Below are positions 11,371 through 35,284 of a stretch of DNA of 64,000 nucleotides, in pieces. The stretch is from a virus (Duplodnaviria > Caudoviricetes): positions 13,082 through 77,081 of the IMG/VR virus record IMGVR_UViG_2562617114_000001. The stretch is one strand, 5' to 3'. The notes beneath the pieces were generated by a model. That model saw only the letters and a list, made by a program, of their open reading frames with translations. It did not search any database and was not told the origin of the DNA. Both the position numbers and the translations under genes were made by a program. Every line of letters starts with the position of its first letter. Position 1 is the stretch's first letter.

Positions 11371-11961
11371 TTGCCAATGAAGAGAAGCAGAATGGAATCC
11401 CCGATCGCTTTGCCAAGCTTTGAGCAGCAGCTTGACGCCATGTTCGGCTGTTGCGATCCCGCCGGACGAACCATCGAAGACCCTGAACGCCACTTTAGCC
11501 CACAAAGTCTCCAGCGCCTGGACGAGGATACTGCGCCACTCATTAGACGCTATATGGAATTGGCATGTGATGGGTTGAGGCTTCCTGGTGTGTTGCACCG
11601 GACGCATCCTATGCTTTGGCTGATCGACAAACCAGGTGATGTCTGGACTGCAATAGAGGAGGTCATTGATGCGGAAACGGGTGCATACCTGTATCCTCTT
11701 TCTCGCAGCCAAAGTTCAAAGCCCGGGCATGTGCGCCTCGGACATCCGTCTTTAGTAATTGCCCGCAACAAGCATGCTCGGATCGGCGGAGAGATTAAGT
11801 ATTCCGCTGCTGCAAATAAGTGGATCATATCAAATCGGTCCGGGAGGTATGGCACCCGCCCAAATCAAACGCAGGCTCATTTGGCTGCTGCAGCCAGTAG
11901 GTTTATGGAATTCGATATCGAACTCACCGTAAGCTTTTGGCAGCCAGGAAACTCACAATGA
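11371..11961 (+). CDS. Hypothetical protein, putative toxin/effector (HPSL...GGEI...SNRSGRY)
   Basis: Visibly AT-richer gene, antisense to the early operon; start uncertain (11371/11377/11392). Confidence 0.65.
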   Translation: MPMKRSRMESPIALPSFEQQLDAMFGCCDPAGRTIEDPERHFSPQSLQRLDEDTAPLIRRYMELACDGLRLPGVLHRTHPMLWLIDKPGDVWTAIEEVIDAETGAYLYPLSRSQSSKPGHVRLGHPSLVIARNKHARIGGEIKYSAAANKWIISNRSGRYGTRPNQTQAHLAAAASRFMEFDIELTVSFWQPGNSQ

Positions 11962-12665
11962 TAATATTTTGGGATTTTGAACCATCCGAAATGCCTGCGC
12001 TTCAGGAAGTGATTACCTCGTCTGAAGGACTCAAAACTTTTATCTCTTCATTGAAGCATTTTCTGGCTGTGACCCCTCTCGATGGCGGAGCAGGAGAAGA
12101 CCTGATCTATACTACTGGGACAATGCTTACGAACGCTAACATTTGGTCGCGCCTACCGGCGGAGGATTTGGCCAACGCTTTAGCAGGCGAAGTCCCCATC
12201 GCTGCTGTAAAGTTGATCTTAGAACACGCATCGAGCGAATATCGACGCGCGGTGATCAGCGCGATGGAATCCACCACTCTATTGACTGAGTATAAGGAAA
12301 TCTTAGATCGTGTGGAGGTCAACGAGCGATACAGTGCTCCCGAAGAATTTAAATTCCGGGGAAGTACACGCTTACCCGATCTTTCGCTCACGATGAGAAG
12401 TTATAAACCAAACTCGTTACTTTTACGGTTTCACCATAAATTGCCTGAATCTAACTTGCGTTCTAACTTCGGTATTCACTTCCGTGCGTTAGGGCTTGAA
12501 AGCTCGGTTGCTATCTCGCTCGGTTTAGGAGTGACATGGGGCGTAACAATTAGACCAAATGCTGTGATAATGCATATCAATGGAAAGTATTTCGTTGAGA
12601 TCGATGAAAGCGTCCTGCGGAAAGTAAGTAGCCAAAAAAAGGCGCCGATTTTCAGTCGGGATTGA
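11958..12665 (+). CDS. Hypothetical protein, translationally coupled partner of 11371-11961
   Basis: ATGA overlap at 11958-11961; AT-rich; no recognised family. Confidence 0.7.
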   Translation: MIIFWDFEPSEMPALQEVITSSEGLKTFISSLKHFLAVTPLDGGAGEDLIYTTGTMLTNANIWSRLPAEDLANALAGEVPIAAVKLILEHASSEYRRAVISAMESTTLLTEYKEILDRVEVNERYSAPEEFKFRGSTRLPDLSLTMRSYKPNSLLLRFHHKLPESNLRSNFGIHFRALGLESSVAISLGLGVTWGVTIRPNAVIMHINGKYFVEIDESVLRKVSSQKKAPIFSRD

Positions 12666-14193: not shown

Positions 14194-14418
14194 CTACCGG
14201 CGGAGGATAGAGTAGGCGGTGGTTTCGGCCACAGCCCGGGGGTCGATGCGATCGGGCTCGATGGTGAGCCCGTCGGTAGCGTGCAGGGGATAGGAGTTGT
14301 GCGCCGTGAACCGCCTGCTTGCGGGGTCGAACGATATATACAGGGCTCCTGGCTTGATTCCGGGGCGAATGATGAGGCGGCCATCTCGCCGGACGTTCCA
14401 GTAGTCGAGGTCGATCAT
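14194..14418 (-). CDS. Paralogue P9 of the unknown early small-protein family
   Basis: LYISFDPASRRF core and C-terminal IDPRAVAETTAYSIL. Confidence 0.7.
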   Translation of the reverse strand: MIDLDYWNVRRDGRLIIRPGIKPGALYISFDPASRRFTAHNSYPLHATDGLTIEPDRIDPRAVAETTAYSILRR

Positions 14419-15152
14419 CCAAGGTATCCGGTGCGCGGGATCAGGTCGTACTTCTTGCCGATCTCATAGGTGATTTCGGTCGGCGTCTGCCCGGCTTCCA
14501 TTGCAGCGGTGATGCGCTCCGGGTGGTCGGACACGAGGTCACCGTATCCCCATTGGCGCTCGGCTTCGGCCCGGCAAGCTGTGATGTATTCTTCCGGCGT
14601 CATCTTCTTGCGCTGGAAGTCTCGGTTGCTCGGGTCCGTCGTGCTCCCCTTGTCGGCGGCCACCATGGAGACGAAGATGGTGTGGATGTCAGGGTGGTAA
14701 GGCTCGCGGTTGTACTGGTTGTCTTCGGTGAGGAGCTTCCAGTCTAGCCGGCGAAGGACTTCCGGCACGAACTCCCAATCGTAGGCGTTCACGAACTCGT
14801 AGCCTTGCGACTCCGTGTGGGTATGCACCCGGAGCGCAATGTCGCCGGCTTGCACGGAGCAGTGGCGCATGGCGGACGAGCCGAGCCCTTCGAAGTAGTC
14901 CTTCAGCAGATCGTGGTCTCGGTTCTCGCACAACCATTCCCAGGCGCAGAGGGCGGCTTCCATCTGCAGGTGGGTGTAGGCGTCAGCATCGCTGAACCTC
15001 GCCTTCGGATCATCCTTCACGCTGGCGAAGACCTCGATGCCGTTGGCGTCCTTACGGGGCTGCTTCTTGATGAAGACGCTCCACGATGTGGTGTCGCCGG
15101 CCAGGCTATCAATGTCAGCAGCGTGGGCATAGCCGATACGTTTGATGGGCAT
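14415..15152 (-). CDS. Hypothetical acidic protein
   Basis: Hairpin motif + AAGGAAGAG SD before ATG 15152. Confidence 0.75.
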   Translation of the reverse strand: MPIKRIGYAHAADIDSLAGDTTSWSVFIKKQPRKDANGIEVFASVKDDPKARFSDADAYTHLQMEAALCAWEWLCENRDHDLLKDYFEGLGSSAMRHCSVQAGDIALRVHTHTESQGYEFVNAYDWEFVPEVLRRLDWKLLTEDNQYNREPYHPDIHTIFVSMVAADKGSTTDPSNRDFQRKKMTPEEYITACRAEAERQWGYGDLVSDHPERITAAMEAGQTPTEITYEIGKKYDLIPRTGYLG

Positions 15153-15183
15153 GGTCTCTTCCTTTCGCATGATTGCGGTGTGG

Positions 15184-15468
15184 TCAGGTGGCAACGCCGA
15201 GCGAGGCGGCGGTGCAGTTAGCGATAATGTGTGGCGGGATGATCGAGATCAGATACTCTCGAAGCTTGTCAGGCACATCGATGGTGCCGACGCCGTCAGC
15301 GCTTAGCCTTGTGCAGGTGCCGAAGACTCTTTGCTCGACCATGTAGATTGCATACCAGCGAGGGGCGCGACCATTGCTGAAGTCGATATAGATTCTGTCT
15401 TTCGTGCTGAATGAGGCCGCGATGTAGATCTCGGTGATGCGGTGCCGGATGCGGGCCGGGTCAACCAT
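15184..15468 (-). CDS. Paralogue P8 of the unknown early small-protein family
   Basis: WYAIYMVEQRVF core; C-terminal KLREYLISIIPPHIIANCTAASL; ATG abuts the upstream TAG. Confidence 0.7.
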   Translation of the reverse strand: MVDPARIRHRITEIYIAASFSTKDRIYIDFSNGRAPRWYAIYMVEQRVFGTCTRLSADGVGTIDVPDKLREYLISIIPPHIIANCTAASLGVAT

Positions 15469-15654
15469 CTATTTCGGCACCCGGATCTTCGCCACGCTGT
15501 AGGGCTCGGCCGCCATGGGGTTAAGGCGACCGTCTCCGTAGATGGTGTGGTCTTGGAGGTGGTTGCGGACCGCATAGACCGCCTGCTTCTTGGACAGCAG
15601 GGCATCGAACCGCACCCGGATTGTGATTTCGTGAGTCGTGCTCTTCATGGTCAT
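15469..15654 (-). CDS. Small hypothetical protein
   Basis: AGGAGG SD; ATGA overlap with the upstream gene. Confidence 0.6.
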   Translation of the reverse strand: MTMKSTTHEITIRVRFDALLSKKQAVYAVRNHLQDHTIYGDGRLNPMAAEPYSVAKIRVPK

Positions 15655-16286
15655 GCCTCCTTGGTGCAGAAGGCCTTGGCCCGGTCGATCAGCTTCGCCA
15701 ACTCTGCGGAGTGGTGCGTCTCGTTCTTGATCTCGGCGAGGGCAGCCAGTTCTTTCACCAGATGGCAGGCCTCCCAGCTGAAGGGCTCGCCGTCCTTGCG
15801 CATGTCCATCTCCACGCCATCGCCGCCCCACTTGTCGTCGTCGTTGGGGTCGTCCTCGTCCGGGCCATAGACGATCATAGTTTGGTCGCCTTCGATGGCG
15901 TCATCGATCGAGTAGTTGAAGTCGTCGTGCCTCAAGGTCGTTGCCTTCGCGACGGCCTCGTCGAAGCTTGTTGCCTGCACTTCGGTGTCGCACTCACCGC
16001 GGAAGGTGGCGAACAGGCGGACGCCGTAGGTGCGGAGCACGGGCTCGTCGTCTTCGCCGTCGCTGTCCTCGTTCGCCTCGATCTCCGCCATGTTGATCGC
16101 GCTCTGCATCACGTTCCGTGCAGTGTCGGCATCGAGTTGGCAGCGGAGGCGAAGGAAGTGGAAGACGTTGGTGACCAGGTCTTTCGCCTTCGTCTGGTCG
16201 TCCTCGCCGTGCATGGGGTGGGACAGGGTGAAGGCGTCGATAGCCAGAGCTGCGTAGGATGCGCGGTCTGCATTGTCTGGTGTCAT
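15651..16286 (-). CDS. Hypothetical, highly acidic protein
   Basis: Hairpin motif + AAGGAG SD before ATG 16286; D/E-rich tracts. Confidence 0.75.
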   Translation of the reverse strand: MTPDNADRASYAALAIDAFTLSHPMHGEDDQTKAKDLVTNVFHFLRLRCQLDADTARNVMQSAINMAEIEANEDSDGEDDEPVLRTYGVRLFATFRGECDTEVQATSFDEAVAKATTLRHDDFNYSIDDAIEGDQTMIVYGPDEDDPNDDDKWGGDGVEMDMRKDGEPFSWEACHLVKELAALAEIKNETHHSAELAKLIDRAKAFCTKEA

Positions 16287-16354
16287 GGGGGTTCTCCTTT
16301 GTTGCCATAGCTGGCGGGGTGGACTCCGTCCGCATCCGGTCCCATAATCCCGGC

Positions 16355-16558
16355 ATGCCAGACATTGACTGGAATAAAGCGCCAAAGGCGGCGCGGTGGT
16401 GGGCGATGGACAAGGATGGCGAGGCACACTGGTTCTGCGCCCCGGATGTCGCTGCGTTCACAGACTTCTGGTTCAGCGAGCCTATGCTGGCACCGAAATT
16501 CGGCTACGATGGCGATTGGCGGCAAAGCCTAGTTGAGAGGCCAGCCGTCAAAAGCTGA
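16355..16558 (+). CDS. Small Trp-rich hypothetical protein, antisense to the early operon
   Basis: MPDIDWNKAPKAARWWAMDKDGEAHWF...WRQSLVERP; fills the gap between VWA gene and next gene. Confidence 0.6.
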   Translation: MPDIDWNKAPKAARWWAMDKDGEAHWFCAPDVAAFTDFWFSEPMLAPKFGYDGDWRQSLVERPAVKS

Positions 16559-17714
16559 TGCTGATCGGCTCACCGAACGGCAGATCCGCCGTCAGCTCGT
16601 CGAACCTACGCGGGTCACCGTAGACTCCCCACAGGACCGGGATTTCCGGATCGTTGCCGAAGTCGTAGACCTCGAGGTCGGTCAGGTAGATGATGAACCG
16701 CGCTTCCGGGAACCGCTCCATGATAACGTTGAAGGAGTCGCGGAAAGCGGTACCGCCCCCGCCGACCGGCCGGAGCACCAGCTCGTCGCCGTTCTCGAAC
16801 TCCTCGATCGCCTGCACCTTGGCGTCGGCATAGATCACGGTCAGCTTGTCGATCGCGCCTTCCATGTATGCGCCGTTGATCTCCGCCGCGAAGTCCTTGC
16901 AAGGCTTGTCGTCGAAGACGGAGCCGGAGGAATCCTGCACGATGATGCCATGGCTGACGCCGTCGCTGATCGTGCCGGGGGTGACGAAGCCGAGCGGCAA
17001 CATGCGCCGGTTCGGTTTCGACCAGCTGAAATCCCGAGTCATGCTCTCGTCGATGAAGCGGCGGAGCATCGCGCGCCAGTCGACCTTGGGCCGGAGCAGC
17101 TCTTCCACGAGCTTGGCGATGTTGGCGGGTAGTTTGCCAGCCTGCGCTCCCTTGGCGGCCATGGCGGCCTGCTGGATCTGCACGTTCATCTCCGCCTCGA
17201 GCTCGGCAATGGTCGACTGGTCATGTGGGGCGCAGCCGTCGAGGACACCGCCGCAACCGCCGCCGTCCATGCTGTTCTCGTCGGAGTCGTCGCCGTTGTT
17301 CTCGTCGTCGAGGATACGGTAGATTTCCTCCGCGGACAGGCCGGTGAAGCGCGGCTCGAGCAGCCCGCACTCCGGCATCTTGCCCACCTTGCACTCGACC
17401 AGCTCGCCGTTGATGGCGTAGTCGGCCGCCTTGTTCCACCGGCCGGGCTTGCGGTGCTGCCGGCGGGTGTGATGCTTCAGCGCATTGTGCATGACCTCGT
17501 GGGCCAGGACGAACACCAGCTCGTCCTTCTTCAGGCTCATGACGAACGGCGTGTGGTAGTAGAGGTGGCGGCCGTCGGTTGCCATCGTGTCGATGCGCGG
17601 GTCATCGGTCGCATCGATCTTCTTCAGCTGCAGCATGAGCACACCGAAGAATGGGTGGTCCCACAGCAGGCCGGTCTGCGCGGCGAGGATCTTGTCTTGG
17701 ACGTTCATGGTCAT
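16548..17714 (-). CDS. DUF2201-type metallopeptidase + VWA domain protein
   Basis: TMATDG and LAHEVMH (HExxH); C-terminal VQDSSGS MIDAS, GGGGTAF and YLTDL. Confidence 0.88.
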   Translation of the reverse strand: MTMNVQDKILAAQTGLLWDHPFFGVLMLQLKKIDATDDPRIDTMATDGRHLYYHTPFVMSLKKDELVFVLAHEVMHNALKHHTRRQHRKPGRWNKAADYAINGELVECKVGKMPECGLLEPRFTGLSAEEIYRILDDENNGDDSDENSMDGGGCGGVLDGCAPHDQSTIAELEAEMNVQIQQAAMAAKGAQAGKLPANIAKLVEELLRPKVDWRAMLRRFIDESMTRDFSWSKPNRRMLPLGFVTPGTISDGVSHGIIVQDSSGSVFDDKPCKDFAAEINGAYMEGAIDKLTVIYADAKVQAIEEFENGDELVLRPVGGGGTAFRDSFNVIMERFPEARFIIYLTDLEVYDFGNDPEIPVLWGVYGDPRRFDELTADLPFGEPISISF

Positions 17715-18022
17715 GTCCCTTGTGCATGGTTGCGGGTGAGGATGGCCGCCAACCCGACGGCCAATTGTTGCTGAGTGAGTTGGGTTCGGAGGATGCCGGC
17801 CAGGTGATGGTTGCTGGCGTTCATCTGGCCGATCGGCCTATCCCTCCGGATGATGTAGACGTTGAACGTCCGGGTGTCGGTGAGCAGGCACAAGCAGTAT
17901 TCGTGATCGCGGTCTCGCTTGCGGCGGAAGCGCCAGATGTAGGCCCAATTTTGCAGCCCATCGTCAGGCTGAGGCGGGCGGATATTCGCCAGCCACGCTT
18001 GCTTGCGGGCTTCGCTGGTCAT
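17711..18022 (-). CDS. Paralogue P7
   Basis: WRF...YCLCLLTDTRTF core; HLAGILRTQLTQQQLAVGLAAIL. Confidence 0.7.
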   Translation of the reverse strand: MTSEARKQAWLANIRPPQPDDGLQNWAYIWRFRRKRDRDHEYCLCLLTDTRTFNVYIIRRDRPIGQMNASNHHLAGILRTQLTQQQLAVGLAAILTRNHAQGT

Positions 18023-18387
18023 GGGTGCATCGCGTTCCACGCATCTTTCATGTAGCCGACGGCGTCGGCGGCATGGGTGTCGGCTTGTCGAGTGGCCGCC
18101 GCCTTGGATGCGCGCTGCCAGATTGTCGGGCTTATCGAGGCTGCGACACATGCGGCCAGCGCCCTGGGACCGATCGCTTCCTTGCCGATGTCGATCTCAT
18201 CCGGCTTTGCTGCTCGCCATTTCTGCCATGGGCTGACCTTGCTGTAGCGGCGACGGTAATCTCCGTTGAAGCGGCGGTCGATCACGTCATACTCAAGCCG
18301 GATCTCCATCGTGCAGGCCTTGCTGGTCCGGTCGCGGATGAGCCAGTTGAAGGGCTTCACTTCTTTGACGCTGTAAGTGCGGGGCAC
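18019..18387 (-). CDS. Paralogue P6 (most divergent)
   Basis: IRLEYDVIDRRF; ALAACVAASISPTIWQRASKAAA; GGAGG SD + GTG. Confidence 0.65.
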   Translation of the reverse strand: MPRTYSVKEVKPFNWLIRDRTSKACTMEIRLEYDVIDRRFNGDYRRRYSKVSPWQKWRAAKPDEIDIGKEAIGPRALAACVAASISPTIWQRASKAAATRQADTHAADAVGYMKDAWNAMHP

Positions 18388-18389
18388 TG

Positions 18390-18785
18390 TTACCTCCGTG
18401 TGATTGCCAGTGCCGTCGCCCTTGCGATGTCGGCAGCCGAGAGTTTCGATTTCAGGATGTCGGTGACGTTGCCTTCCTGCGTGAGCGTGGCGTCACCTTC
18501 GATGAACATCTTGGGGTGAATGCAGGGGCCGGCTTCAGCCTCGATGCCTTGGGATCGAAGGCCCATGCGGTTTCGCCGACCATCCAGCGAGGGCTTGCCG
18601 GTGTTGCTCGCCAGAAACTTGCGGGTCTTGGGGGTGTAGGTGAGAACCCAATGGGACATCTCACCATCGCCGCGGATGCCGAAGAAATACCAGCGCAGCT
18701 CTTGCGTGGTCGGCTTCCCGTCGAGGATGACTCGCGTCTCCTCCGGTGCGAAAGGCCCGAAGACTTTGCGAATGATCGGCATCAT
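18390..18785 (-). CDS. Paralogue P5
   Basis: FGPF...WYFFGIRGDGEMSHWVLTYTPKTRKF...VTDILKSKLSAADIARATALAI. Confidence 0.75.
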   Translation of the reverse strand: MMPIIRKVFGPFAPEETRVILDGKPTTQELRWYFFGIRGDGEMSHWVLTYTPKTRKFLASNTGKPSLDGRRNRMGLRSQGIEAEAGPCIHPKMFIEGDATLTQEGNVTDILKSKLSAADIARATALAITRR

Positions 18786-19120
18786 TTCCTCCCGTAGTTG
18801 AGGGCGGCTATTGTGGCCCGGGCGATACGCTCATCGCCCAGGCGGTCTCTTAGAATGTCGGTGACGCGGGCGCCTTCGATCACACCGCGCTGCGTTTCGG
18901 GCAGCATGTCGAGGCTGCCTTGCTCGGCCAGCCGCTTCGCATACTTGGACTCGTTGCCGCCGGTGTGGTGCTTCACCCGGAACTTGCGGGTGTCGAGGAA
19001 GAAGGTCAGCGTGTAGCCTCGCACGTCGCCGTCCATGAGCACGCAGGAGAAGAACCACTTGAAGCCGTAGCCTTTGATCTCCTCACGGTACGGGCCCCAC
19101 ACTGCCTTGAACTTAGCCAT
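18782..19120 (-). CDS. Paralogue P4
   Basis: WGPY...WFFSCVLMDGDVRGYTLTFFLDTRKF...VTDILRDRLGDERIARATIAAL. Confidence 0.75.
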   Translation of the reverse strand: MAKFKAVWGPYREEIKGYGFKWFFSCVLMDGDVRGYTLTFFLDTRKFRVKHHTGGNESKYAKRLAEQGSLDMLPETQRGVIEGARVTDILRDRLGDERIARATIAALNYGRK

Positions 19121-19481
19121 CCATGCGGCCTCCGCGGAGTGATATCGCCGTCACTTCAGCGATGTCTTCGGGTTTGAGCATCGACTTCATGGCGACAGCC
19201 ACGCTGCCCTTTGGGAGCATGTGGCGGAGCACTGCGATCGGGCGGTAGATGTCCGCCAGATCCTTCGCATGGATCTTGTCCCAATAGGTGACCGTCAGAG
19301 GATTCGACGTGAACTTCTTCGTCTCGAGGCTGAAGCACAGGTGCCACCGGCGGATCTCACCGGCGGGTGTGACGCCGATGAACTCCCACTTGCAAATCTG
19401 CACGATCCGATCGGGATAGACGCCAGCGTCCGCCGTCTTGTAGGACAGCGGACCGGCGATCCAATGCACCCCCTTATCCAA
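19113..19481 (-). CDS. Paralogue P3
   Basis: AGPL...WEFIGVTPAGEIRRWHLCFSLETKKF...AMKSMLKPEDIAEVTAISL. Confidence 0.75.
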   Translation of the reverse strand: MDKGVHWIAGPLSYKTADAGVYPDRIVQICKWEFIGVTPAGEIRRWHLCFSLETKKFTSNPLTVTYWDKIHAKDLADIYRPIAVLRHMLPKGSVAVAMKSMLKPEDIAEVTAISLRGGRMDG

Positions 19482-20481
19482 GGGTCACATCCTGGTTCCG
19501 CACCGCCCAATCCGTGAAGGTCTGAGTGTGCGACAGGCCCGGGTCACGACGGACGGCATCGACCGCCATCATGATCTCGAACTCACGGGCAGGAATGCGT
19601 CGGATGTAGGTCATGGCGTTCTCGAAGGTCTTGGCATCGGCGCGACGGCCCAGTGCTGCCGAGATGGCAAACCGTGCCGACGGATCATCCGGAAGCGGCG
19701 CGCTGTTCGGGTTGGCGAGGACCAGATCCAGCGACGGGAGCTTCTGATAGACGCGGATGAAGCCTTCCAGCTCGCCGGCAGCACCATCGCCGACCACACC
19801 GGAGACCAGCGACAAGCGCCGGCTCGAGTCCTTGCCGATGTATTTGGCCGCCTGTTCCCACGAGCGGGGGGTGGGGAAGGCGCGGTCATCGGAGGACTCC
19901 GGCATCTTGTGGATGAGGTGCGGCCGGAAGCGGAGGAAGGCAATCATGATCGGGTCCATGCCGATCTTGTTGAAGTGCTCCACATGCACGTTGTCGTGGC
20001 CGGCGCTTGTGTCCGCCTCGACATCGATATGAGCGAAGCGGTTGGCGAGCGCCGTCGGCATGCGCTGTGCTGCTGCGCGGTCCGTCTGGCGGTTACCAGC
20101 TGCAACCACGCGCCAGCCCTTGGGGAGCACGTAGTCGCCGACCTTGCGATCGAGGACCAGGCCGAACATGGCGGCCATCATCGACGGCGGCGCGGCGTTG
20201 AGCTCGTCGAGGAAGAGGATGCCTTCCGGACCGTCGCGCTCCACCTGTGGAAACTCGTCGGGCACCTTCCATTTCGTGGTGTCGCCGGAGATATCGGGCA
20301 GACCCATGAGGGCGACCGAGTCACGGGTGGAAGCGCGGAAGTCGATCAGGTTCCAGCCGCGGCTATCCGCAATCTGCTGTGTTGCCTGCGATTTGCCGCA
20401 GCCGGGTGGGCCCCACATGAACGCCGGCGTGTCCTCATCGAGGTAGTCGTTCAGGTTCAGGGCAGCAGTTTTAATGTGCAT
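19474..20481 (-). CDS. MoxR-type AAA+ ATPase
   Basis: Walker A WGPPGCGKS; Walker B ILFLDELN; VAAGNR; ALANRF; TPRSWE; AAGGAG SD before ATG 20481. Confidence 0.92.
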   Translation of the reverse strand: MHIKTAALNLNDYLDEDTPAFMWGPPGCGKSQATQQIADSRGWNLIDFRASTRDSVALMGLPDISGDTTKWKVPDEFPQVERDGPEGILFLDELNAAPPSMMAAMFGLVLDRKVGDYVLPKGWRVVAAGNRQTDRAAAQRMPTALANRFAHIDVEADTSAGHDNVHVEHFNKIGMDPIMIAFLRFRPHLIHKMPESSDDRAFPTPRSWEQAAKYIGKDSSRRLSLVSGVVGDGAAGELEGFIRVYQKLPSLDLVLANPNSAPLPDDPSARFAISAALGRRADAKTFENAMTYIRRIPAREFEIMMAVDAVRRDPGLSHTQTFTDWAVRNQDVTLG

Positions 20482-20861
20482 TGGTCGTCTCCTTGTTTGC
20501 CATATTCGGCTGGGTCGATGGGAAGGCCGATCCTCAAGCGGGTGAGGTCGGCAATGTCGGTGCCGCGCACCATGGAGAAAGCGGCATCGGCAAGCTTGTC
20601 GCGCGGGAAGCGCGGGTAGGACAGTTGCGGGAAGGGTGAGAGGTCTTCCGGCAGGCGGTAGTCGTGGAAGTTGGCGCCATACTTCGGCGCTTTGGCTCCC
20701 CAATGATCACGGGCTCGCATCTTGAACGTCTTGTCGCGTGGCCCGATCAGCGCCTCGTATCGAAGCGTCTTTCCTTCGTCGGAGCGGAAGGCGAACCAGA
20801 ACTTGAGCCGTCCGAAAACTACCTGCCGGGCGTAGGGTCCGATCAGGAGTCCGGTGGGCAT
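20457..20861 (-). CDS. Paralogue P2
   Basis: IGPY...FWFAFRSDEGKTLRYEALIGPRDKTF...KLADAAFSMVRGTDIADLTRLRI. Confidence 0.7.
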   Translation of the reverse strand: MPTGLLIGPYARQVVFGRLKFWFAFRSDEGKTLRYEALIGPRDKTFKMRARDHWGAKAPKYGANFHDYRLPEDLSPFPQLSYPRFPRDKLADAAFSMVRGTDIADLTRLRIGLPIDPAEYGKQGDDQCTLKLLP

Positions 20862-20862
20862 G

Positions 20863-21225
20863 TCACTTCCAAATGATCTCATCCGGAAACAGGATGGCCG
20901 GGCCGCATATGGGCGGCAGCTCCTCCGGGTCCATCGCCGGGCGCTGGGTCATCATGTTGTTGCGGTAGATTTCGGTCGCCCTAACGTTGCGGATGTGGCG
21001 GCCGTTGATGTTGCTGGTCTCTCCGACGAACATGTCGCGGCGTTCGCCCTCGTAGAGCACGGCAACATGCTCGACGGGTTCATCGAATGCGTCGGGCAGA
21101 AGCCGCTTGATCCAAGTCGAGATTGGCTCCCTTGTGAAGCGTGGCTCCATGCGGATTTCTTTTGCTTCGCCGAGCGCCGGGATGAGCAAAGCCCGGGCAA
21201 ACGTTCCTGTTCTGAGGCCGGTCAA
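20863..21225 (-). CDS. Hypothetical protein (DUF3846-like pattern)
   Basis: DMFVGE...RNVRATEIY...ICGPAIL; hairpin motif + AAGGAG + TTG start. Confidence 0.6.
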   Translation of the reverse strand: MTGLRTGTFARALLIPALGEAKEIRMEPRFTREPISTWIKRLLPDAFDEPVEHVAVLYEGERRDMFVGETSNINGRHIRNVRATEIYRNNMMTQRPAMDPEELPPICGPAILFPDEIIWK

Positions 21226-21253
21226 TGGGCTCTCCTTTGTGCATGATTGCGAG

Positions 21254-21284
21254 AAAAAGGGACGCTGGCTCCGGCCAACGTCCC
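21254..21284 (-). terminator. Intrinsic terminator
   Basis: Minus strand GGGACG-TTGGC-CGGA-GCCA-GCGTCCC followed by TTTTT. Confidence 0.7.
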
Positions 21285-21393
21285 CACGTGTTGCGGCGGG
21301 TTACTCGATTACTTCATGACCGCCTCCTCTGGCTGTTGACGTTCGGGGTGAACCTGCCTTTACGGTCTCCACACCTACCGGGCAGGGATGGGA

Positions 21394-22290
21394 TCAGGCG
21401 AGGAAGTCGGACACGCTGTCCAAGATGCGCTGCGCCTCGGCCGCGGTGTCCTTGCGGACGTTCGCGTCTTCCTTCAGGGCCGCGGCATCGTACTTCGTGA
21501 GCGCCTTCAGACGCTCGCCAAGGGCGTCCAGCTCGGGCGACCCGACGATGTTGAGCGACGGCATGACGCTCACCAGATCCGCGATGTTCTCGACGAGGCT
21601 GGAGCGGAAGCCGCCGGTGCGCTCGCCGGGGGTGAAGCTGTTGAGGCGGTCCACCATGCGCTCTGTCAGGGTGGCAACGCGCTGGTAGACGTCGCGGACC
21701 GCGTTCTCGGTCGCCTTCTGCAGCTGCTCCTCGATATCGGCGCGGATGAGGGCGGCGTGTGCCTCGCTCATGTCGACGCGGAAGTCCGTCGAGGTCGGCA
21801 CGGGCAGGACCGAATAGACGATGCCGAACTTCTCCCGGATCTCGTTGCTGGTCGGGTAGTCGGTCGCCTTGAACAGCTTGCCCATGCGCTTTTGCGCGTC
21901 GGTGACGTGCTGGTCGAAGTCGTTCACCAGCTTATCCACCTCGCGCTGGAACTTGGCGGACTGGACGCGCATCCACGCGGTGAAGGGGAGATAGCCGTCG
22001 GCGCTGATGATGCGGCCGCCGTCATTGAGCCACGGCAGGGTGCGCTCATAGAAGCCGTTGCGGGTTTCGCTGACGAGCGTTTGAATGCCGGCGAGCGCTT
22101 CCTTGCTCACCAGCAGCTTGTTGACGCGGGAGGCGTCGGATGCTGCGTTGTGGGAGTCGTTGAGCTCCTGCGTCACCTGCCGATCAAGCCGGCGGCCGGA
22201 CCACTGCGAAATCGTCACGCTGACGATCATCGCACGGCTGGCGAGGGTGGAGGTGGAGGCAGAGAGGGTAGCTGGGGTCATGGAATTCAC
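21394..22290 (-). CDS. DUF3150-like protein
   Basis: VSVTISQWSGRRLDR...KLL...TLPW...LFKATDYP...FRVD...FRSSLVEN...SLNI; GTG at 22290 after AAGGAG. Confidence 0.75.
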   Translation of the reverse strand: MNSMTPATLSASTSTLASRAMIVSVTISQWSGRRLDRQVTQELNDSHNAASDASRVNKLLVSKEALAGIQTLVSETRNGFYERTLPWLNDGGRIISADGYLPFTAWMRVQSAKFQREVDKLVNDFDQHVTDAQKRMGKLFKATDYPTSNEIREKFGIVYSVLPVPTSTDFRVDMSEAHAALIRADIEEQLQKATENAVRDVYQRVATLTERMVDRLNSFTPGERTGGFRSSLVENIADLVSVMPSLNIVGSPELDALGERLKALTKYDAAALKEDANVRKDTAAEAQRILDSVSDFLA

Positions 22291-22361
22291 GTTCAGTCTC
22301 CTTTGGTTGCCATGAGTGGCGGGGGCGGTGGAATCTACACGCGGGATTGCGTGGACAGAAG

Positions 22362-22649
22362 TCAGGCCGCGAGTGATGCGGCCAAGCACCGCGCTCTCTC
22401 TTCCGGCGGGATCATCGACAGGAATAGCTCGGCAAGCTTACGCGGGCGCGGCAGGCGCTTTGTGGTGCCGAACCCGTTGTGGATTTTAACTCCAGCCCGG
22501 AAGCGCCGGGAATCCGTCTGGAAAACGAGGTGATACTGGCGGCGGGGTTTGCCACAATCAAACCTGTAGACGATGCCTTGGCCTTCCAGATCCGGCGTTG
22601 TCAGGCGGCCGACATAGCGGAACACGGGGCGGATGCTATCGGCGTTCAT
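22362..22649 (-). CDS. Paralogue P1
   Basis: YRFDCGKPRRQYHLVFQTDSRRF...KLAELFLSMIPPEERARCLAASL; ATGA overlap. Confidence 0.75.
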   Translation of the reverse strand: MNADSIRPVFRYVGRLTTPDLEGQGIVYRFDCGKPRRQYHLVFQTDSRRFRAGVKIHNGFGTTKRLPRPRKLAELFLSMIPPEERARCLAASLAA

Positions 22650-23458
22650 CCGACCGTGTTCCCGTCTTCGTCGAAGGTGAAGTCGGCAAGCGCCTCGTCC
22701 ACCGCCTCGTCGGACGTAAGGTACTCGTGCTCCGCCTCCAGCTGGCGATAGATCCAGTCCATGAACGAGCGGAGGCATGCGGCGACCTCCTCCACGAAAG
22801 GGCCGTAAATGAGCCCATATCGACCACATAGCGCGTTCCAGGTCATCACCTGCAATTGGTTGTCTTCGTCCAGCGAGTCAGGCGTGGGCAAGTCTGCGTC
22901 GATCGACACCGAATAGGCGTGGCAATAGCTGGAGGTGCCTTTCTCGATGGTCACCGTTGCGTCCGGGATGAGCGCGTTGCACCGTTCCGATATGTCGGCC
23001 AGGGAGAACGCAATCTCATGCAAGCGCTCATCCGTCGGGGCGTGGCGTATGACGGCGGAGAGGGAGGCGAGCGGATTGCTCACCGGGCGCCAATCGCCAG
23101 TAAAGCACGCGCCATCGCCTTGGCTGGAGAAGCCCGTGAAATAGATTGCGGGCGAGGTGACCGTCTCGCCGTTTTGCAGGCGTTCGCGCTTGTCGTCGAT
23201 CTCAATGCCCATCACACCGGCGATCAAGATGGCGTCGTCATAGATCGAGTCCCACCAGTCGTAATGCAGGCCCTCGGCGCGGTAGTCGTCGCGGGCTCGT
23301 TCTTTCGCGCGGGGTGACAGCTCCTTAAACGAAAACTCCGCCTTGTCGGCGGAGTCGTCGTCCTCAAAGTCGGTTGCGGGCTGGTTGACGTAAATGGGTG
23401 CACCTTCAGCTATTGCGCGGTTGACGGCGCGGGTAAGGGCGGCACGAGCGGCGTTCAT
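22646..23458 (-). CDS. Acidic conserved mobile-element protein (IYFxGFxSQGDGACF family)
   Basis: FKELSPRAKERAR...WWDSIYDD...IYFTGFSSQGDGACF...WIYRQLEAEHEYLTSDEAVDE. Confidence 0.75.
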   Translation of the reverse strand: MNAARAALTRAVNRAIAEGAPIYVNQPATDFEDDDSADKAEFSFKELSPRAKERARDDYRAEGLHYDWWDSIYDDAILIAGVMGIEIDDKRERLQNGETVTSPAIYFTGFSSQGDGACFTGDWRPVSNPLASLSAVIRHAPTDERLHEIAFSLADISERCNALIPDATVTIEKGTSSYCHAYSVSIDADLPTPDSLDEDNQLQVMTWNALCGRYGLIYGPFVEEVAACLRSFMDWIYRQLEAEHEYLTSDEAVDEALADFTFDEDGNTVG

Positions 23459-23466
23459 GGGAAGCC

Positions 23467-23790
23467 TCACAGGCTTATGCGGATCGACACAGAAAAGCCC
23501 GCCGGTGCGATTTGCACGGGCGGGCGGTGGATCGGCGCGGGTTTCGGTTTAGGCGCGCGGTATGCGGCCTTGACGGGTTTCGGGCGCGGCAACGGGACCG
23601 GGCCAGCGATAGGCAATTCTGCGAACGACTCCACCAGTGTTGGAGCTGGCGGAGCGGGAATGGGTGCCAGCGCAACAGGGGCGGGCGCTGGTGCGGGTGC
23701 GGGCTTGCTGTTGGAGATTATGCCGGTGGCGCCTTGGAAAAGCACGAGGGCGACCGTCGCAAGCGTGGGGAAGCCGCCAGCGTGACTCAT
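23467..23790 (-). CDS. Pro/Ala-rich protein with hydrophobic N-terminus
   Basis: ATGA overlap; TLATVALVLF followed by PAPAPAPAP and PLPRPKP. Confidence 0.5.
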   Translation of the reverse strand: MSHAGGFPTLATVALVLFQGATGIISNSKPAPAPAPAPVALAPIPAPPAPTLVESFAELPIAGPVPLPRPKPVKAAYRAPKPKPAPIHRPPVQIAPAGFSVSIRISL

Positions 23791-31540: not shown

Positions 31541-33108
31541 TGGTTTCCAACTTCCTCGACAGAACGATCGGCTTCTTCAGCCCTGAGAAGGGAGCGAAGC
31601 GGGTCGCGGCACGGAAGCGGATGGAGCTGCTGGATGGGATACGGGCTTACGAGGGCGCGTCGAATGGGCGGCTGGCTCAAAACTGGCTTGCGCCTCGCGG
31701 GGATGCAAACGGCGAAATTTCGCGGGCGGGTGCAACGCTCCGGGATCGATCGCGCGATGCTGTCCGCAATCATCCGCTCGCGGCAAAGATCGTAACCATC
31801 CACGCCAACAACTTCGTCGGCTTCGGCATCACGCCGCAGTTCAAGACCGGCGATCCGGATCGTGACAAGAAGCTCACCGAGCTCTTCGACGAATGGTCGA
31901 AGGTTTGCCATGTGGATGGATCGACTGACTTCTACGGCCTGACCTATCTCCTCGCACGCATGATGGTGCAGGACGGCGAACTCTACATCCGTAAGCGGAC
32001 CCGGCTCATGTCGGATGGGCTGCCGGTACCGCTCCAGCTGCAGGTGCTCGATAGCGAGTTCTGCGACTGGTCCAAGAGCATCACGCTCGAGGGTAACCGG
32101 ATCATCAACGGCATCGAGTACGACGCGATCGGCCGGCGCCGCGGATACTGGCTCTACCCGCAGAATCCCCTGGGCAGTTACTCGTTTGGCGGCACGGTGG
32201 CCGTCAGCGGCTTCGTGCCGGCGACGGATGTGGCTCACATTTTCGAGCCGCAGACGAACCAGATCCACGGTGTGCCTTGGCTGGCGCCGATCCTGACCGA
32301 GCTAAAGGATCTCAGGGACTACGAGCTTGCGGAGAACATCCGCAAGAAAGTGGAAGCCTGCTCCGTCGGCACAGTCGTTCTAGGCGACACCGAGAACGAT
32401 GACGACCCGAACGTCGGCATCACCGTCCCCGACCCGCCTGGCGAGGGCAAGGTCGAGCCGGCGGTTACGGACGTCTACGGCAATCCGATGGAACGGATGG
32501 AGCCGGGGATGTTCCACATTCTGACGGGCGGCAAGGACATCAAGTTCAACACCCCGGCGATCTCGGCGGGCATGGAAGCGTATCTCCGCACTCGCCACCG
32601 CAGCATCGCGGCCGGCGCGCGGGTGACCTACGAGCTCATGACCGGCGATTTTAGCCAGGCCAATTTCGCATCGGGCAAGCTCGGCTTGCTCGAGTATCAG
32701 CGGTTCGTCGGGCATGTGCAGTGGCACATTCTGATTCCGCAGGCACTCGACAAGATCGGCGCTTGGTTCATCGAAGCCGCAAAGCTGGCCGGAAAGCTTC
32801 CTGCGAACGTGGCGGTGAAGATCGAATGGACGCCGCCCGAAGTCGAAAGCATCACCCGTCTCGACGACGCGCGCGCAGATCTCCTCGAGGTCCGCATGGG
32901 CAAGCGCTCCATGCCCGAGATCATCGCCAAGACCGGACGCGATCCAGCGACCGTGCTCAAGGAGACAGACGAGTGGAGCGCCAAGGTCGATGCGACCGCC
33001 ACCAAGCTCATCCTCGATTCCGATCCGCGCAAGGTCACCATCCAGGGCCAATTGCAGATGACGAAACAGGATGGCGACAACGGAGAAACCGATGCCCCAA
33101 GCTCTTAG
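31540..33108 (+). CDS. Portal protein, lambda family
   Basis: YEGAS.GR, LRDRSRDAVRN, DGE, HIFEP...G.PWLAP, TGDFSQANFAS. Confidence 0.93.
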   Translation: MVSNFLDRTIGFFSPEKGAKRVAARKRMELLDGIRAYEGASNGRLAQNWLAPRGDANGEISRAGATLRDRSRDAVRNHPLAAKIVTIHANNFVGFGITPQFKTGDPDRDKKLTELFDEWSKVCHVDGSTDFYGLTYLLARMMVQDGELYIRKRTRLMSDGLPVPLQLQVLDSEFCDWSKSITLEGNRIINGIEYDAIGRRRGYWLYPQNPLGSYSFGGTVAVSGFVPATDVAHIFEPQTNQIHGVPWLAPILTELKDLRDYELAENIRKKVEACSVGTVVLGDTENDDDPNVGITVPDPPGEGKVEPAVTDVYGNPMERMEPGMFHILTGGKDIKFNTPAISAGMEAYLRTRHRSIAAGARVTYELMTGDFSQANFASGKLGLLEYQRFVGHVQWHILIPQALDKIGAWFIEAAKLAGKLPANVAVKIEWTPPEVESITRLDDARADLLEVRMGKRSMPEIIAKTGRDPATVLKETDEWSAKVDATATKLILDSDPRKVTIQGQLQMTKQDGDNGETDAPSS

Positions 33109-35284
33109 AGAGGCAATCGAGAAAGAAATCCGCATCCCGAAGAGCTTCGGCGAGGTCGAGGTGCGGGCCGACACCTTCAACGAGAACGATCGCACAGTCG
33201 AGGTTTGCTGGTCTACCGGCGCCAAGGTGAAGCGATATTCCTGGGATGAAGGCTACTACATGGAAGAGCTGCAGGTGGACAAGAAAGCTGTCCGCCTCGA
33301 TCGGTTCAGCGCGATGTCGTTGCTCGACACGCACGACAACTACTCCATGGATTCGAGGCTGGGCACTGTCGTCCCAGGCTCGGTTCGCTTCGAGAACGGC
33401 AAGGCTTACGCGCGCATCAAGTTCTCGAGGAAGCAGCGCGCCGAAGAGATCATGCAGGACATCCGCGACGGACATCCCCTGCCGATCTCGGTTGGCTACA
33501 AAATCCACCGGTATGAGAAGACCGAAGGCGCAGACGGGCAGCTGCCTGTGCTGAGGGCGATCGATTGGGAGCCGCTCGAATTGTCGGCGGTACCGATCCC
33601 GGCGGACGCCGGAGCAATCTCCAGATCCGAGCCGGACGGCAAGGACTTCGAAACCGTCCTGGTCCGGCAGGACTCACCCCACGCGGCCGTGCCCGCAACT
33701 ACGAAGGAAAGACCCATGAATAAGCGCGAAGCCGCGAAGCAGTACAAGGGTGATCAGCTGGACGCCCTTGCCATTGGTGCAGGTATCTCCCGCAAGGAAA
33801 ACGAGACTGACGAAGCCCTGCGCGCTCGCCTGCTCGATGCCTTCGACAAGGAAGACCGCGCCGCCGACGAGGCCGAAAAGGCTCGCAAGGCTGCTGAAGA
33901 AACCGCTCGCCGTGCCGCTGAAGAAGAAATCCAGCGCCGCGCAACCGGTCAGCAGCACCAGCAGCAGCCCACCGGTCTGACCGAGCAGCAGGCGCAGCAG
34001 CGTGCGGACGAGGCTGTCGCCGCCGAAGTCAAGCGCCGCTCCGACATTGAGGGCTTCGCTAAGATCTCCGGCCTGAAGTCCGACGACGAGCTCGTCCGCA
34101 AGGCGATCGACGACCGCCACACGATGGAGCAGTTCCGGAACGCGGTCCTCGACAAGATGATCGCCGACCAGGCGCGCTCCCCGACCTTCCCGCACAGCGA
34201 GAGCCGTGGGATGGATGCGCAGGACACAATGCGCCGCATGGTCACCAACGCCATCCTCCATCAGCTCGGCGTCGAGTCGAAGCTCGAGGACGGCGCCCGC
34301 GAATGGCGCTCGATGGGCGCGATGGAGATGGCCCGGGAACTGCTGGCTGCACGCGGCCAGAGCACCCGTGGCGGCGTCCACCAGATCGCCGAGCGCTCGC
34401 TGCACACAACGAGCGACTTCCCGATCATCCTGCAGTCGGTCGTCCGTGCGGTTCTCCTGTCCCGCTACACCGGCTACGAGAACACGTTCCAGCTCTTTGC
34501 CTCGCGCGAAGTGCTGCCGGACTATCGTGAAGCCAAGGTGCTCGATATCGGCGCGGCGCCCGACCTGAAGCTGAAGAACGAGCACGGTGAGTTCGTGTCC
34601 GGCACGCTCCGCGAAAGCGAAGAAGCCATGAAGCTGCAGCGCTACGGTCGCGCGATCGGCTTCACCCACGAAATGCTCGTGAACGACCAGCTCGGTCAGT
34701 TCATGAAGGTGGTCGGCCAGTGGGGCGAGAAGGTCGCCAAGCTGGAAGGCGACGTCATGTGGGGCGCCATCATCAACAACCTGGTAATGAAGGATGGCTT
34801 TGGCCTCTTCCATGCCAACCATAAGAACCTTGCCGCCAGCGGTACGGCTCTCGACATCGCCAACCTGAAGAAGGCCCGCACGGCGATGCGCGGTCAGAAG
34901 GACATCGACGGCGGTATCATCAACCTCAACCCGAAGTATCTGTTCACCGGCTCGAACCTCGAGCTCGATGCGCAGACGCTGGTTGCGGCTCCGTACAACC
35001 CGGTCGTCGCCGGCGAAGTCACCCCGCAGGCGATCAAGTCGCTGGTTCCGGTCTACGAGCCGCGCCTCGACCTGATCACCAAGAACGCATGGTTCCTGTT
35101 CTCCGACTCCGCTTCGGATCGCGGCCTGCACTACCTGCACCTGCTGGGTTACGAGCAGCCGACCACGAACGAGCAGATCGGTTTCCGCATCGAAGGCGTG
35201 GAGTTCACCATCGCGCATTCGTTCGGCGTCGGCCTGACAGACTACCGGTTCGCCTACAAGAACCCTGGCGTCGATCCAACCTGA
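33071..35284 (+). CDS. Prohead protease-major capsid protein fusion
   Basis: N-terminal protease LLDTHD...ISVGY...WEPLELSAVPIPAD; C-terminal capsid HTTSDFPIIL, YGRAIGFTHEMLVND, RFAYKNPG. Confidence 0.88.
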   Translation: MATTEKPMPQALREAIEKEIRIPKSFGEVEVRADTFNENDRTVEVCWSTGAKVKRYSWDEGYYMEELQVDKKAVRLDRFSAMSLLDTHDNYSMDSRLGTVVPGSVRFENGKAYARIKFSRKQRAEEIMQDIRDGHPLPISVGYKIHRYEKTEGADGQLPVLRAIDWEPLELSAVPIPADAGAISRSEPDGKDFETVLVRQDSPHAAVPATTKERPMNKREAAKQYKGDQLDALAIGAGISRKENETDEALRARLLDAFDKEDRAADEAEKARKAAEETARRAAEEEIQRRATGQQHQQQPTGLTEQQAQQRADEAVAAEVKRRSDIEGFAKISGLKSDDELVRKAIDDRHTMEQFRNAVLDKMIADQARSPTFPHSESRGMDAQDTMRRMVTNAILHQLGVESKLEDGAREWRSMGAMEMARELLAARGQSTRGGVHQIAERSLHTTSDFPIILQSVVRAVLLSRYTGYENTFQLFASREVLPDYREAKVLDIGAAPDLKLKNEHGEFVSGTLRESEEAMKLQRYGRAIGFTHEMLVNDQLGQFMKVVGQWGEKVAKLEGDVMWGAIINNLVMKDGFGLFHANHKNLAASGTALDIANLKKARTAMRGQKDIDGGIINLNPKYLFTGSNLELDAQTLVAAPYNPVVAGEVTPQAIKSLVPVYEPRLDLITKNAWFLFSDSASDRGLHYLHLLGYEQPTTNEQIGFRIEGVEFTIAHSFGVGLTDYRFAYKNPGVDPT

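Follow-up and report, generated by a model that had tools for sequence, protein, structure and literature searches.

What kind of protein is encoded by nine short open reading frames (ORFs) that crowd the minus strand between positions 14194 and 22649 of a 64,000-nucleotide stretch of viral DNA (IMG/VR record IMGVR_UViG_2562617114_000001, positions 13,082 to 77,081; hereafter the window, with positions counted from its first letter), and what do these proteins do? An earlier note, made from the letters and a list of ORFs, had described them as nine diverged paralogues. We find that, judged by its sequences, this small-protein family is real and undescribed. We tentatively read its copies, named here after their lower window coordinate (o14194 to o22362), as accessory partners of an ATPase machine encoded in the same operon, which comprises a MoxR-like AAA+ ATPase, a protein joining a zincin metallopeptidase domain to a von Willebrand factor A (VWA) domain, and a DUF3150-type protein.

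Evidence for a single protein family

Significant BLAST matches between the nine ORFs are confined to two cores, one formed by o18390, o18782 and o19113 (E 1e-7 to 4e-5) and the other by o15184 and o22362 (E 4e-6). Several pairs are insignificant when taken alone, and o18019 and o14194 give E values above 0.05 against all others, as would be expected if the shared blocks were a chance or compositional likeness of unrelated short ORFs in a GC-rich genome. Profile searches gave a different picture. Using the ATPase as a query, we drew 23 loci from IMG/VR and searched them together with the window by jackhmmer, as a set of about 1,640 stop-to-stop ORFs; this yielded a 51-sequence family profile (A1), and a second profile (A2) was built from external database matches. 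Searches started from different members ended with the same eight of the nine window ORFs, and no alternative-frame or neighbouring ORF was drawn in (o17711 as a seed, for instance, recovered seven other window members). Against A1 these eight scored E 2e-30 to 4e-14 and o14194 scored 0.047, the best other window ORF being at 7.6, and a six-frame search of the whole 7.05-Mb genome returned the same eight members and none elsewhere.

The ninth ORF was brought in by a comparison of hidden Markov models, a kind of check that the earlier note had proposed. When o14194 was aligned with A2 by hhalign, both blocks fell in register with a probability of 82-87% (E 1e-5 to 4e-6), values comparable to those of o17711 and o20457, whereas seven small ORFs of the same operon, taken as controls, all stayed below 1%. 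Of the claim that nine paralogues share two blocks, the part that concerns eight of them is thus borne out by profile search; the ninth, recognized by hhalign only, is probably a truncated family member.

The family extends well beyond the window. A profile search with the 51 sequences against 1.84 billion representative sequences retrieved 286 clusters at E up to 0.001 and 107 at E up to 1e-10; the best 150 clusters are all stand-alone proteins of 85-154 residues, and the named members in databases are all called 'hypothetical protein'. Chance similarity is refuted by the A1 profile, the six-frame genome search, this large database search and hhalign with its controls, and we regard it as highly improbable: the profiles recover exactly these ORFs and none in an alternative frame, the clusters at E up to 0.001 among 1.8 billion proteins number in the hundreds, the fold is predicted with confidence, and the ratio of nonsynonymous to synonymous substitution rates (dN/dS) is below 1.

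Members have conserved ends and a hypervariable middle on one scaffold, as the earlier note had proposed. In alignments A1 and A2, block 1 reads [WY].L.[YF]....R.F and is followed by the variable linker and then by block 2, L..L.P..IA..TA.S[IL]. Identity among the eight window members is 22% in block 1 and 27% in block 2, compared with 5% in the linker, whose length ranges from 23 to 53 residues in the window and from 20 to 56 across about 200 family sequences. The conserved positions belong mostly to the hydrophobic core (G9-P10, W22, F24, W/Y36, L38, Y/F40, F47, L90, L94, A100 and I/L107), and the count of four members with a GP dipeptide, given at the outset, is exact. In addition, R45 is nearly invariant, and a P-E-[DE] cap, often acidic, precedes a last helix that is hydrophobic (A/T/A/S/I consensus). 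The proteins are basic, with an isoelectric point (pI) of 8.7-10.8 in the window and, among 149 relatives, above 8 in 92% (median 10.0).

An AlphaFold2 model of o18782, computed with A1, has a mean predicted local distance difference test (pLDDT) score of 80.3 and a predicted template modelling score (pTM) of 0.70. From the N terminus, it shows a beta meander of four strands (residues 2-52), then a helix and a short strand, and lastly a pair of helices at the C-terminal end (residues 86-109). The pLDDT drops to 59-68 over residues 51-80, which correspond to the variable linker, so that the middle that varies most in sequence is also the part modelled with low confidence.

Neither sequence nor structure led to a known family, and the earlier statement that none fits stands for Pfam, PHROGs, NCBIfam, PADLOC (for the members tested), PDB sequences and fold searches. 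No match was found in Pfam (E up to 1) or PHROGs for any of the nine, in NCBIfam for the two copies searched, or in PADLOC-DB for six family members, for the VWA and DUF3150-type proteins or for an acidic 274-residue protein of the same operon; the ATPase gave only a P-loop-level PADLOC match (IetA, E 6e-4). Pfam searches with the 149 relatives returned nothing consistent, the matches to YscK and Membrane_bind being dismissed as each was an isolated single member. PDB sequence profiles stayed at noise level (best E 0.11), and ESM Atlas held no usable match for two members. With the o18782 model, none of the fold searches was significant (Foldseek against PDB, best E 0.15; BFVD, E 0.06; exhaustive VIA-align, Z 4.8). 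The top structural rows included the Pur-alpha entries 3k44 (Z 4.8, root-mean-square deviation 1.7 A over 46 residues) and 3nm7 (Z 4.3, Foldseek E 0.32) as well as SpoVG (Z 4.3), and no chain reaches Z 5. WGR proteins accompany some bacterial MoxR-vWA loci, and a WGR domain did appear at rank 40 (E 0.64); it was dropped in view of the lack of any Pfam WGR match in the 149 members. Finally, literature searches on DUF2201, DUF3150 and the phage MoxR/vWA metallopeptidase yielded no description of such a small-protein family.

Genomic address, coupling and descent of the copies

The window represents a myovirus-like prophage integrated in the genome (about 60% GC) of a Rhizobiales bacterium, where it corresponds to positions 249,772-313,771 of a contig of about 414 kb. 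Structural genes (large terminase, portal, capsid-protease fusion, sheath and tape measure) occupy the plus strand. The minus strand carries a tightly packed early operon that runs from about 25,970 down to 12,986, holds all nine ORFs and ends with a phage beta-clamp gene; primase and helicase genes lie near it on the opposite strand. The third-position GC of the nine ORFs (0.71-0.83) is similar to that of the flanking genes. Named relatives of the operon genes come from Ensifer, Agrobacterium, Rhizobium, Ochrobactrum/Brucella, Ancylobacter, Aquibium and Mesorhizobium, and a megablast comparison of the region with plasmids and phages gave no match.

Table 1. Family members and associated features of the early operon (window coordinates; aa, amino acids; nt, nucleotides; E values of family members are against profile A1 unless stated otherwise)
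Feature	Position	Strand	Description
o22362	22362..22649	-	95 aa, pI 10.8; E 1.5e-15; 4-nt overlap of its ATG with the stop of the acidic 274-aa gene
o20457	20457..20882	-	141 aa; E 6.9e-18
o19113	19113..19481	-	122 aa; E 2.1e-30; first gene past the ATPase gene
o18782	18782..19120	-	112 aa; E 4e-25; member used for the AlphaFold2 model
o18390	18390..18785	-	131 aa; E 1.3e-27; longest linker, 53 residues; BLASTP to o18782 E 1e-7
o18019	18019..18387	-	122 aa, C-terminal extension; E 1.2e-19; hhalign against A2 96.6%
o17711	17711..18022	-	103 aa; E 1.5e-19; last of the main array
o15184	15184..15468	-	94 aa, outside the main array; E 3.7e-14; BLASTP to o22362 E 3.6e-6
o14194	14194..14418	-	74 aa, probable truncated ninth member; E 0.047, below threshold
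MoxR-like AAA+ ATPase	19474..20481	-	335 aa; phrog_1297 E 2e-82; Pfam AAA_5 and AAA
Zincin metallopeptidase-VWA protein	16548..17714	-	388 aa, net charge -23; DUF2201_N E 1.7e-50, DUF2201 E 3.4e-16; phrog_1314 E 6.5e-87
DUF3150-type protein	21394..22290	-	298 aa; third conserved module component; homologues with PF11348 at 34-53% identity
Conserved 120-aa protein	20863..21225	-	no known family; 5' of o20457 and the ATPase gene; 91% identity in L010
Start-site hairpins	14174, 15176, 16314, 17733, 21250, 22319, 24196, 24959, 25282, 25991	-	at ten larger genes

All nine ORFs overlap the upstream gene or lie within 2 nt of it, and here the start and stop geometry had been described correctly. The start overlaps the upstream stop by 4 nt in o22362, o18390, o17711 and o14194, by 8 nt in o19113 and o18782 and by 20 nt in o20457, while o18019 follows after a 2-nt gap and o15184 abuts the stop of a gene for a 61-aa protein. 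The TTG start of o19113 lies inside the final codons of the ATPase gene. On the downstream side, o20457, which is preceded by the conserved 120-aa gene, overlaps the AAA+ gene by 25 nt, and o17711 shares 4 nt at its stop with the start of the zincin-VWA gene. A short hairpin, (C)GCA-NNNA-TGC(G) or GCCA-NNNA-TGGC, lies 3-8 nt 5' of the Shine-Dalgarno site in ten larger genes of the operon (that of the ATPase gene is a variant with a G-U pair), and this combined signal is absent from all nine family genes. Since the family genes have no such signal of their own and start at or inside the preceding stop, their translation should be tied to the upstream gene; the nine copies should thus be translationally coupled to the genes for the ATPase and the 120-aa, acidic 274-aa, 61-aa and 251-aa proteins. 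Note that the probable start of the 251-aa gene is the ATG at 15152, not the TTG at 15194.

The address of the copies is the same in relatives. In the related loci numbered L001-L011, the order is DUF3150 gene, 120-aa gene, in some cases a copy, AAA+ gene, two to seven copies, and zincin-VWA gene; extra copies in this clade lie before the DUF3150 gene or after an acidic 211-aa gene. The window itself has five family genes between the ATPase and zincin-VWA genes and four more elsewhere in the operon. Contigs from metagenomes or genomes that were looked up independently, starting from distant family members of the large search, show the same gene order. Orthologues of o20457 lie directly 5' of the ATPase gene in L002, L003, L005, L010 and L034/35. 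The last two represent an Agrobacterium tumefaciens prophage (L034, L035; 13 contigs) that has lost the zincin-VWA gene and most of the array and has kept the DUF3150 gene, the 120-aa gene, the ATPase and beta-clamp genes and three copies, of which two flank the ATPase gene and one lies further on.

The module is also found without the family. Distant marine phages (L015-L021) have the order ATPase, DUF3150, VWA with no small genes, and the N4-like Rhizobium phage RHph_I1_6 has its ATPase and metallopeptidase genes side by side with an overlap, which argues that the three-gene module is older than the small family. In low-GC phage contigs whose ATPase is 41% identical (L012-L014), the gap between ATPase and VWA genes is filled by two unrelated proteins of about 215 aa. 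We considered whether the pair in L012 might be an independent paralogue array and ruled this out, as the two are not paralogues; by BLAST, neither resembles the DUF3150-type protein.

Wherever the context of the copies was sampled, they belonged to this early operon and to one clade of Rhizobiales prophages, with most of them between the MoxR-like AAA+ and zincin-VWA genes. A tblastn search with o19113, the one copy queried, found no match in 50,697 cultured phage records, and a survey of 300 other genomes of the same order gave 0 matches, which, with 16 candidates scored per genome, indicates rarity and not absence.

Phylogenetic analysis bears on the age of the copies. None of the window copies is sister to another window copy in the maximum-likelihood tree, on which the label 'window' requires eight changes. 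Supported orthogroups unite them with copies of other phages, the o19113 type in 8 rows (support 98/88) and the o18782 type in 7 rows (97/98); o22362 shares a starred clade with the o15184 type, and o14194 has a single orthologue, found in L005. Because the copies group with those of other phages, the paralogues predate the divergence of these phages. The closest relative is L010, whose flanking genes are 91-97% identical to those of the window (synonymous divergence, dS, 0.24-0.54; dN/dS 0.10-0.12), whereas the copies are 73, 56, 58 or 33% identical or have no orthologue (dS 0.83-1.04; dN/dS 0.17-0.70). The best conserved is o19113 (73%, dN/dS 0.17); o22362 has no orthologue there. The DNA of the array and of the islands that carry o22362, o15184 and o14194 is largely unalignable or missing in L010, the island of o15184 being missing. 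The higher dS of the copies shows that segments were exchanged by recombination and did not simply evolve faster in place, and their dN/dS below 1 marks them as constrained genes, with no gene-wide signal of pervasive positive selection. On this comparative record, the paralogues are ancient, their turnover proceeds by recombination, and the selection on them is purifying but relaxed; their variability is the product of ancient paralogy and cassette exchange, not of in-situ hypermutation.

As for the module itself, the ATPase also matches the CobS-type phrog_249 weakly. It has relatives in 806 cultured phage records, all below 60% identity, and the ATPase/zincin-VWA pair occurs in many prophages as well. 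In the zincin-VWA protein, the HExxH motif (H72, E73, H76) and the DxSxS motif of the metal ion-dependent adhesion site (MIDAS; D261, S263, S265) are invariant in 71 homologues; the label of phrog_1314, 'HNH endonuclease', looks mis-annotated given the zincin and VWA Pfam matches of the window protein. The DUF3150-type protein is itself below Pfam detection, and its helical model (pLDDT 93.5) gives only generic helical-bundle matches (best Z 10.8, a designed protein). Its likely start is the GTG at 22290, 7 nt past an AAGGAG that follows the hairpin, and the GTG at 22389 and the ATG at 22281 look wrong. The 120-aa gene is present in 10 of 11 related viral loci and also in L024 and L034-L037, and its product is not recognized as a family member (hhalign below 1%).

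Three strongly acidic proteins are encoded on the minus strand, at 22646-23470 (net charge -29), 15651-16286 (-28) and 16548-17714 (-23), and a family copy adjoins each of them: o22362 comes right after the first, o15184 after the second with the 61-aa gene in between, and o17711 right before the third, the zincin-VWA protein. The first of these, the 274-aa protein, has phrog_5162 as its sole match, with no function assigned there. Elsewhere in the prophage, the capsid-protease fusion is the 737-aa protein encoded at 33071-35284 (phrog_4523, 'major head and protease protein', E 3e-183), and two overlapping plus-strand ORFs of 196 and 242 aa (11371-12665) lie antisense to the early operon in a region of lower GC (0.56-0.57).

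Possible roles of the copies

All roles put forward for the copies are hypotheses, among them the anti-defence inhibitors, host-protein binders and client adaptors that the earlier note had suggested. We lean towards the copies being accessory partners of the ATPase machine, while giving this proposal somewhat less than an even chance. Nine ancient paralogues, small and basic, each with a beta meander at the N terminus, two helices at the C terminus and a flexible, hypervariable linker between them, would be translated as coupled riders and would act as adaptors, clients or regulators of the DUF3150/MoxR-like AAA+/zincin-VWA machine; contact with the machine would fall to the conserved scaffold, and the variable linkers would differ in what they bind. 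We infer both the physical contact with the ATPase or the VWA protein and the role of the linker in target choice. The proposal is made because the copies have a fixed address around the ATPase gene, are retained where the VWA gene is lost, are coupled, and have a charge opposite to that of the VWA protein (median pI 10.0 for the family, net charge -23 for the latter), and because DUF397 sets a precedent beside bacterial MoxR-vWA systems (PMC7159879). In the known MoxR-VWA couples, moreover, it is through the VWA protein that the ATPase is linked with a client protein (PMC7159879). A more specific form of the proposal, in which the array is a set of interchangeable specificity adaptors whose sheet and C-terminal helices dock on the AAA+/zincin-VWA proteins while the linker selects a host or phage protein for unfolding or cleavage, is unlikely.

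Several observations weigh against a partnership with the machine. All loci belong to one prophage lineage that shares the whole operon, so that the adjacency is conserved synteny and not independent association. The ATPase/zincin-VWA pair is apparently at work elsewhere without the small family, in RHph_I1_6 and, with only the DUF3150 gene for company, in the marine relatives, and the VWA-less Agrobacterium prophage shows, at the level of gene content, that the copies would not need the VWA protein. Furthermore, o22362, o15184 and o14194 follow unrelated genes in islands missing from L010, and, R45 excepted, no invariant polar residue marks an obvious docking site.

The same observations are consistent with another role, in which the copies would be independent early accessory proteins, such as host-takeover or counter-defence binders, with a linker for each host target and no need of a phage ATPase, and their location would be a legacy of tandem duplication. 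We consider this somewhat doubtful in itself, yet nearly as likely as an accessory partnership. The copies turn over fast relative to L010, being 33-73% identical or absent beside flanks of 91-97%, with the array DNA mostly unalignable; they are also found behind unrelated genes in variable islands, and the family is retained in the prophage that lacks the VWA gene. Their presence in an early operon and their sporadic occurrence (0 of 300 genomes of the same order; 0 of 50,697 cultured phage records for o19113) resemble those of accessory genes. By contrast, the orthogroups are old and widely kept (the o19113 type in 8 rows), a persistence that quickly replaced counter-defence genes seldom show, and gene-wide dN/dS is below 1. 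No PADLOC model or named family was matched, and the copies, which have no start signal of their own, were never seen outside the ATPase operon.

The predicted fold and the charge of the proteins raise a further alternative, that they are small nucleic-acid binders built on a four-strand-plus-helix unit like that of PUR, Whirly or SpoVG proteins and act on phage or host DNA or RNA in a replication-type early operon. Indeed, the family is strongly basic (pI 8.7-10.8 in the window; median of the relatives 10.0), the operon ends in a beta-clamp gene and has primase and helicase genes nearby on the opposite strand, and two Pur-alpha entries and SpoVG are among the top structural rows, although these are sub-threshold: every Z is below 5 and every Foldseek E above 0.05, which is noise level for the library. 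The last helix is hydrophobic, and so is probably buried rather than a recognition helix, and none of the 149 members has a nucleic-acid-binding Pfam match. We therefore hold this alternative to be improbable; it could, however, coexist with either an accessory partnership or independent binding.

Relation to described systems and significance

In CbbQ-CbbO, NorQ-NorD, RavA-ViaA and CobS-CobT, an ATPase ring works with a VWA adaptor that engages a client protein. The window pair has this ring-plus-adaptor logic in common with these classical couples, which, however, serve one defined client and have no diversified small-protein array; in addition, the window VWA protein carries a zincin peptidase domain.

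Closer at hand, the phage pair of PHROG 1297 and 1314 was described in group 2.2 jumbo phages by Iyer et al. 2021, who regard the MoxR-like ATPase and the zincin-VWA protein as chaperone and co-chaperone and propose virion assembly with peptidolytic processing (PMC7824862). The same two families bracket the window array, with HExxH and MIDAS intact, and the pair is also found in N4-like phages. The genes of the pair as described are neighbours, whereas five small paralogues separate them in the window and two to seven do so in its relatives; the published description does not include the small family.

Among cellular systems, the nearest likeness is DUF397 (PF04149), of which Kaur et al. 2020 report several tandem copies beside MoxR-vWA (VMAP) ternary conflict systems and for which they propose the role of a multimerising co-effector (PMC7159879). 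Like the window proteins, DUF397 is small, has four strands and a terminal helix, and occurs in tandem copies by a MoxR-vWA pair. The likeness is a functional analogy only. PF04149 matched none of the nine (E up to 1) and none of the 149 relatives (E up to 0.01), and a six-frame genome search with it gave no match; since control genomes gave none either, that search is uninformative when taken alone. The CxE motif (strand 2) and RDS motif (end of strand 3) of DUF397 are missing here, and strand 2 has neither a conserved Cys nor a conserved Glu; the residues conserved instead are G-P, W.F, [WY].L.[YF], R.F and L..L.P..IA..TA.S[IL]. DUF397 is, moreover, actinobacterial and cellular, whereas the window family is one of Rhizobiales prophages, with a variable linker and a further two helices at its C terminus. 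The VMAP and iSTAND MoxR-vWA ternary systems themselves have VMAP-C or an inactive STAND protein as the third component and effector domains fused to vWA (PMC7159879); in the window, the vWA protein is fused only to an N-terminal zincin, and the third conserved component is DUF3150-type.

Finally, phage accessory paralogue arrays in general resemble the window array in their head-to-tail coupled small genes, variable copy number (here two to seven) and cassette exchange. The window array differs from them in its fixed address in one enzyme operon throughout the clade and in its orthogroups, which are old and not recently amplified.

The ATPase/zincin-VWA pair is present in more than 800 sequenced phages, and its only published reading is the proposed chaperoning of virion assembly (PMC7824862). 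A diversified multi-copy family confined to the ATPase operon provides the first candidate partners for this machine. If its members were specificity adaptors, the array would provide a protease or remodeller driven by ATP with a modular targeting repertoire that recombination shuffles. If instead the copies act alone, they would be phage-encoded binders built on a new scaffold, in agriculturally relevant Rhizobiales (the Ensifer, Agrobacterium, Rhizobium and Ochrobactrum/Brucella groups). On either reading, the family merits a database entry.

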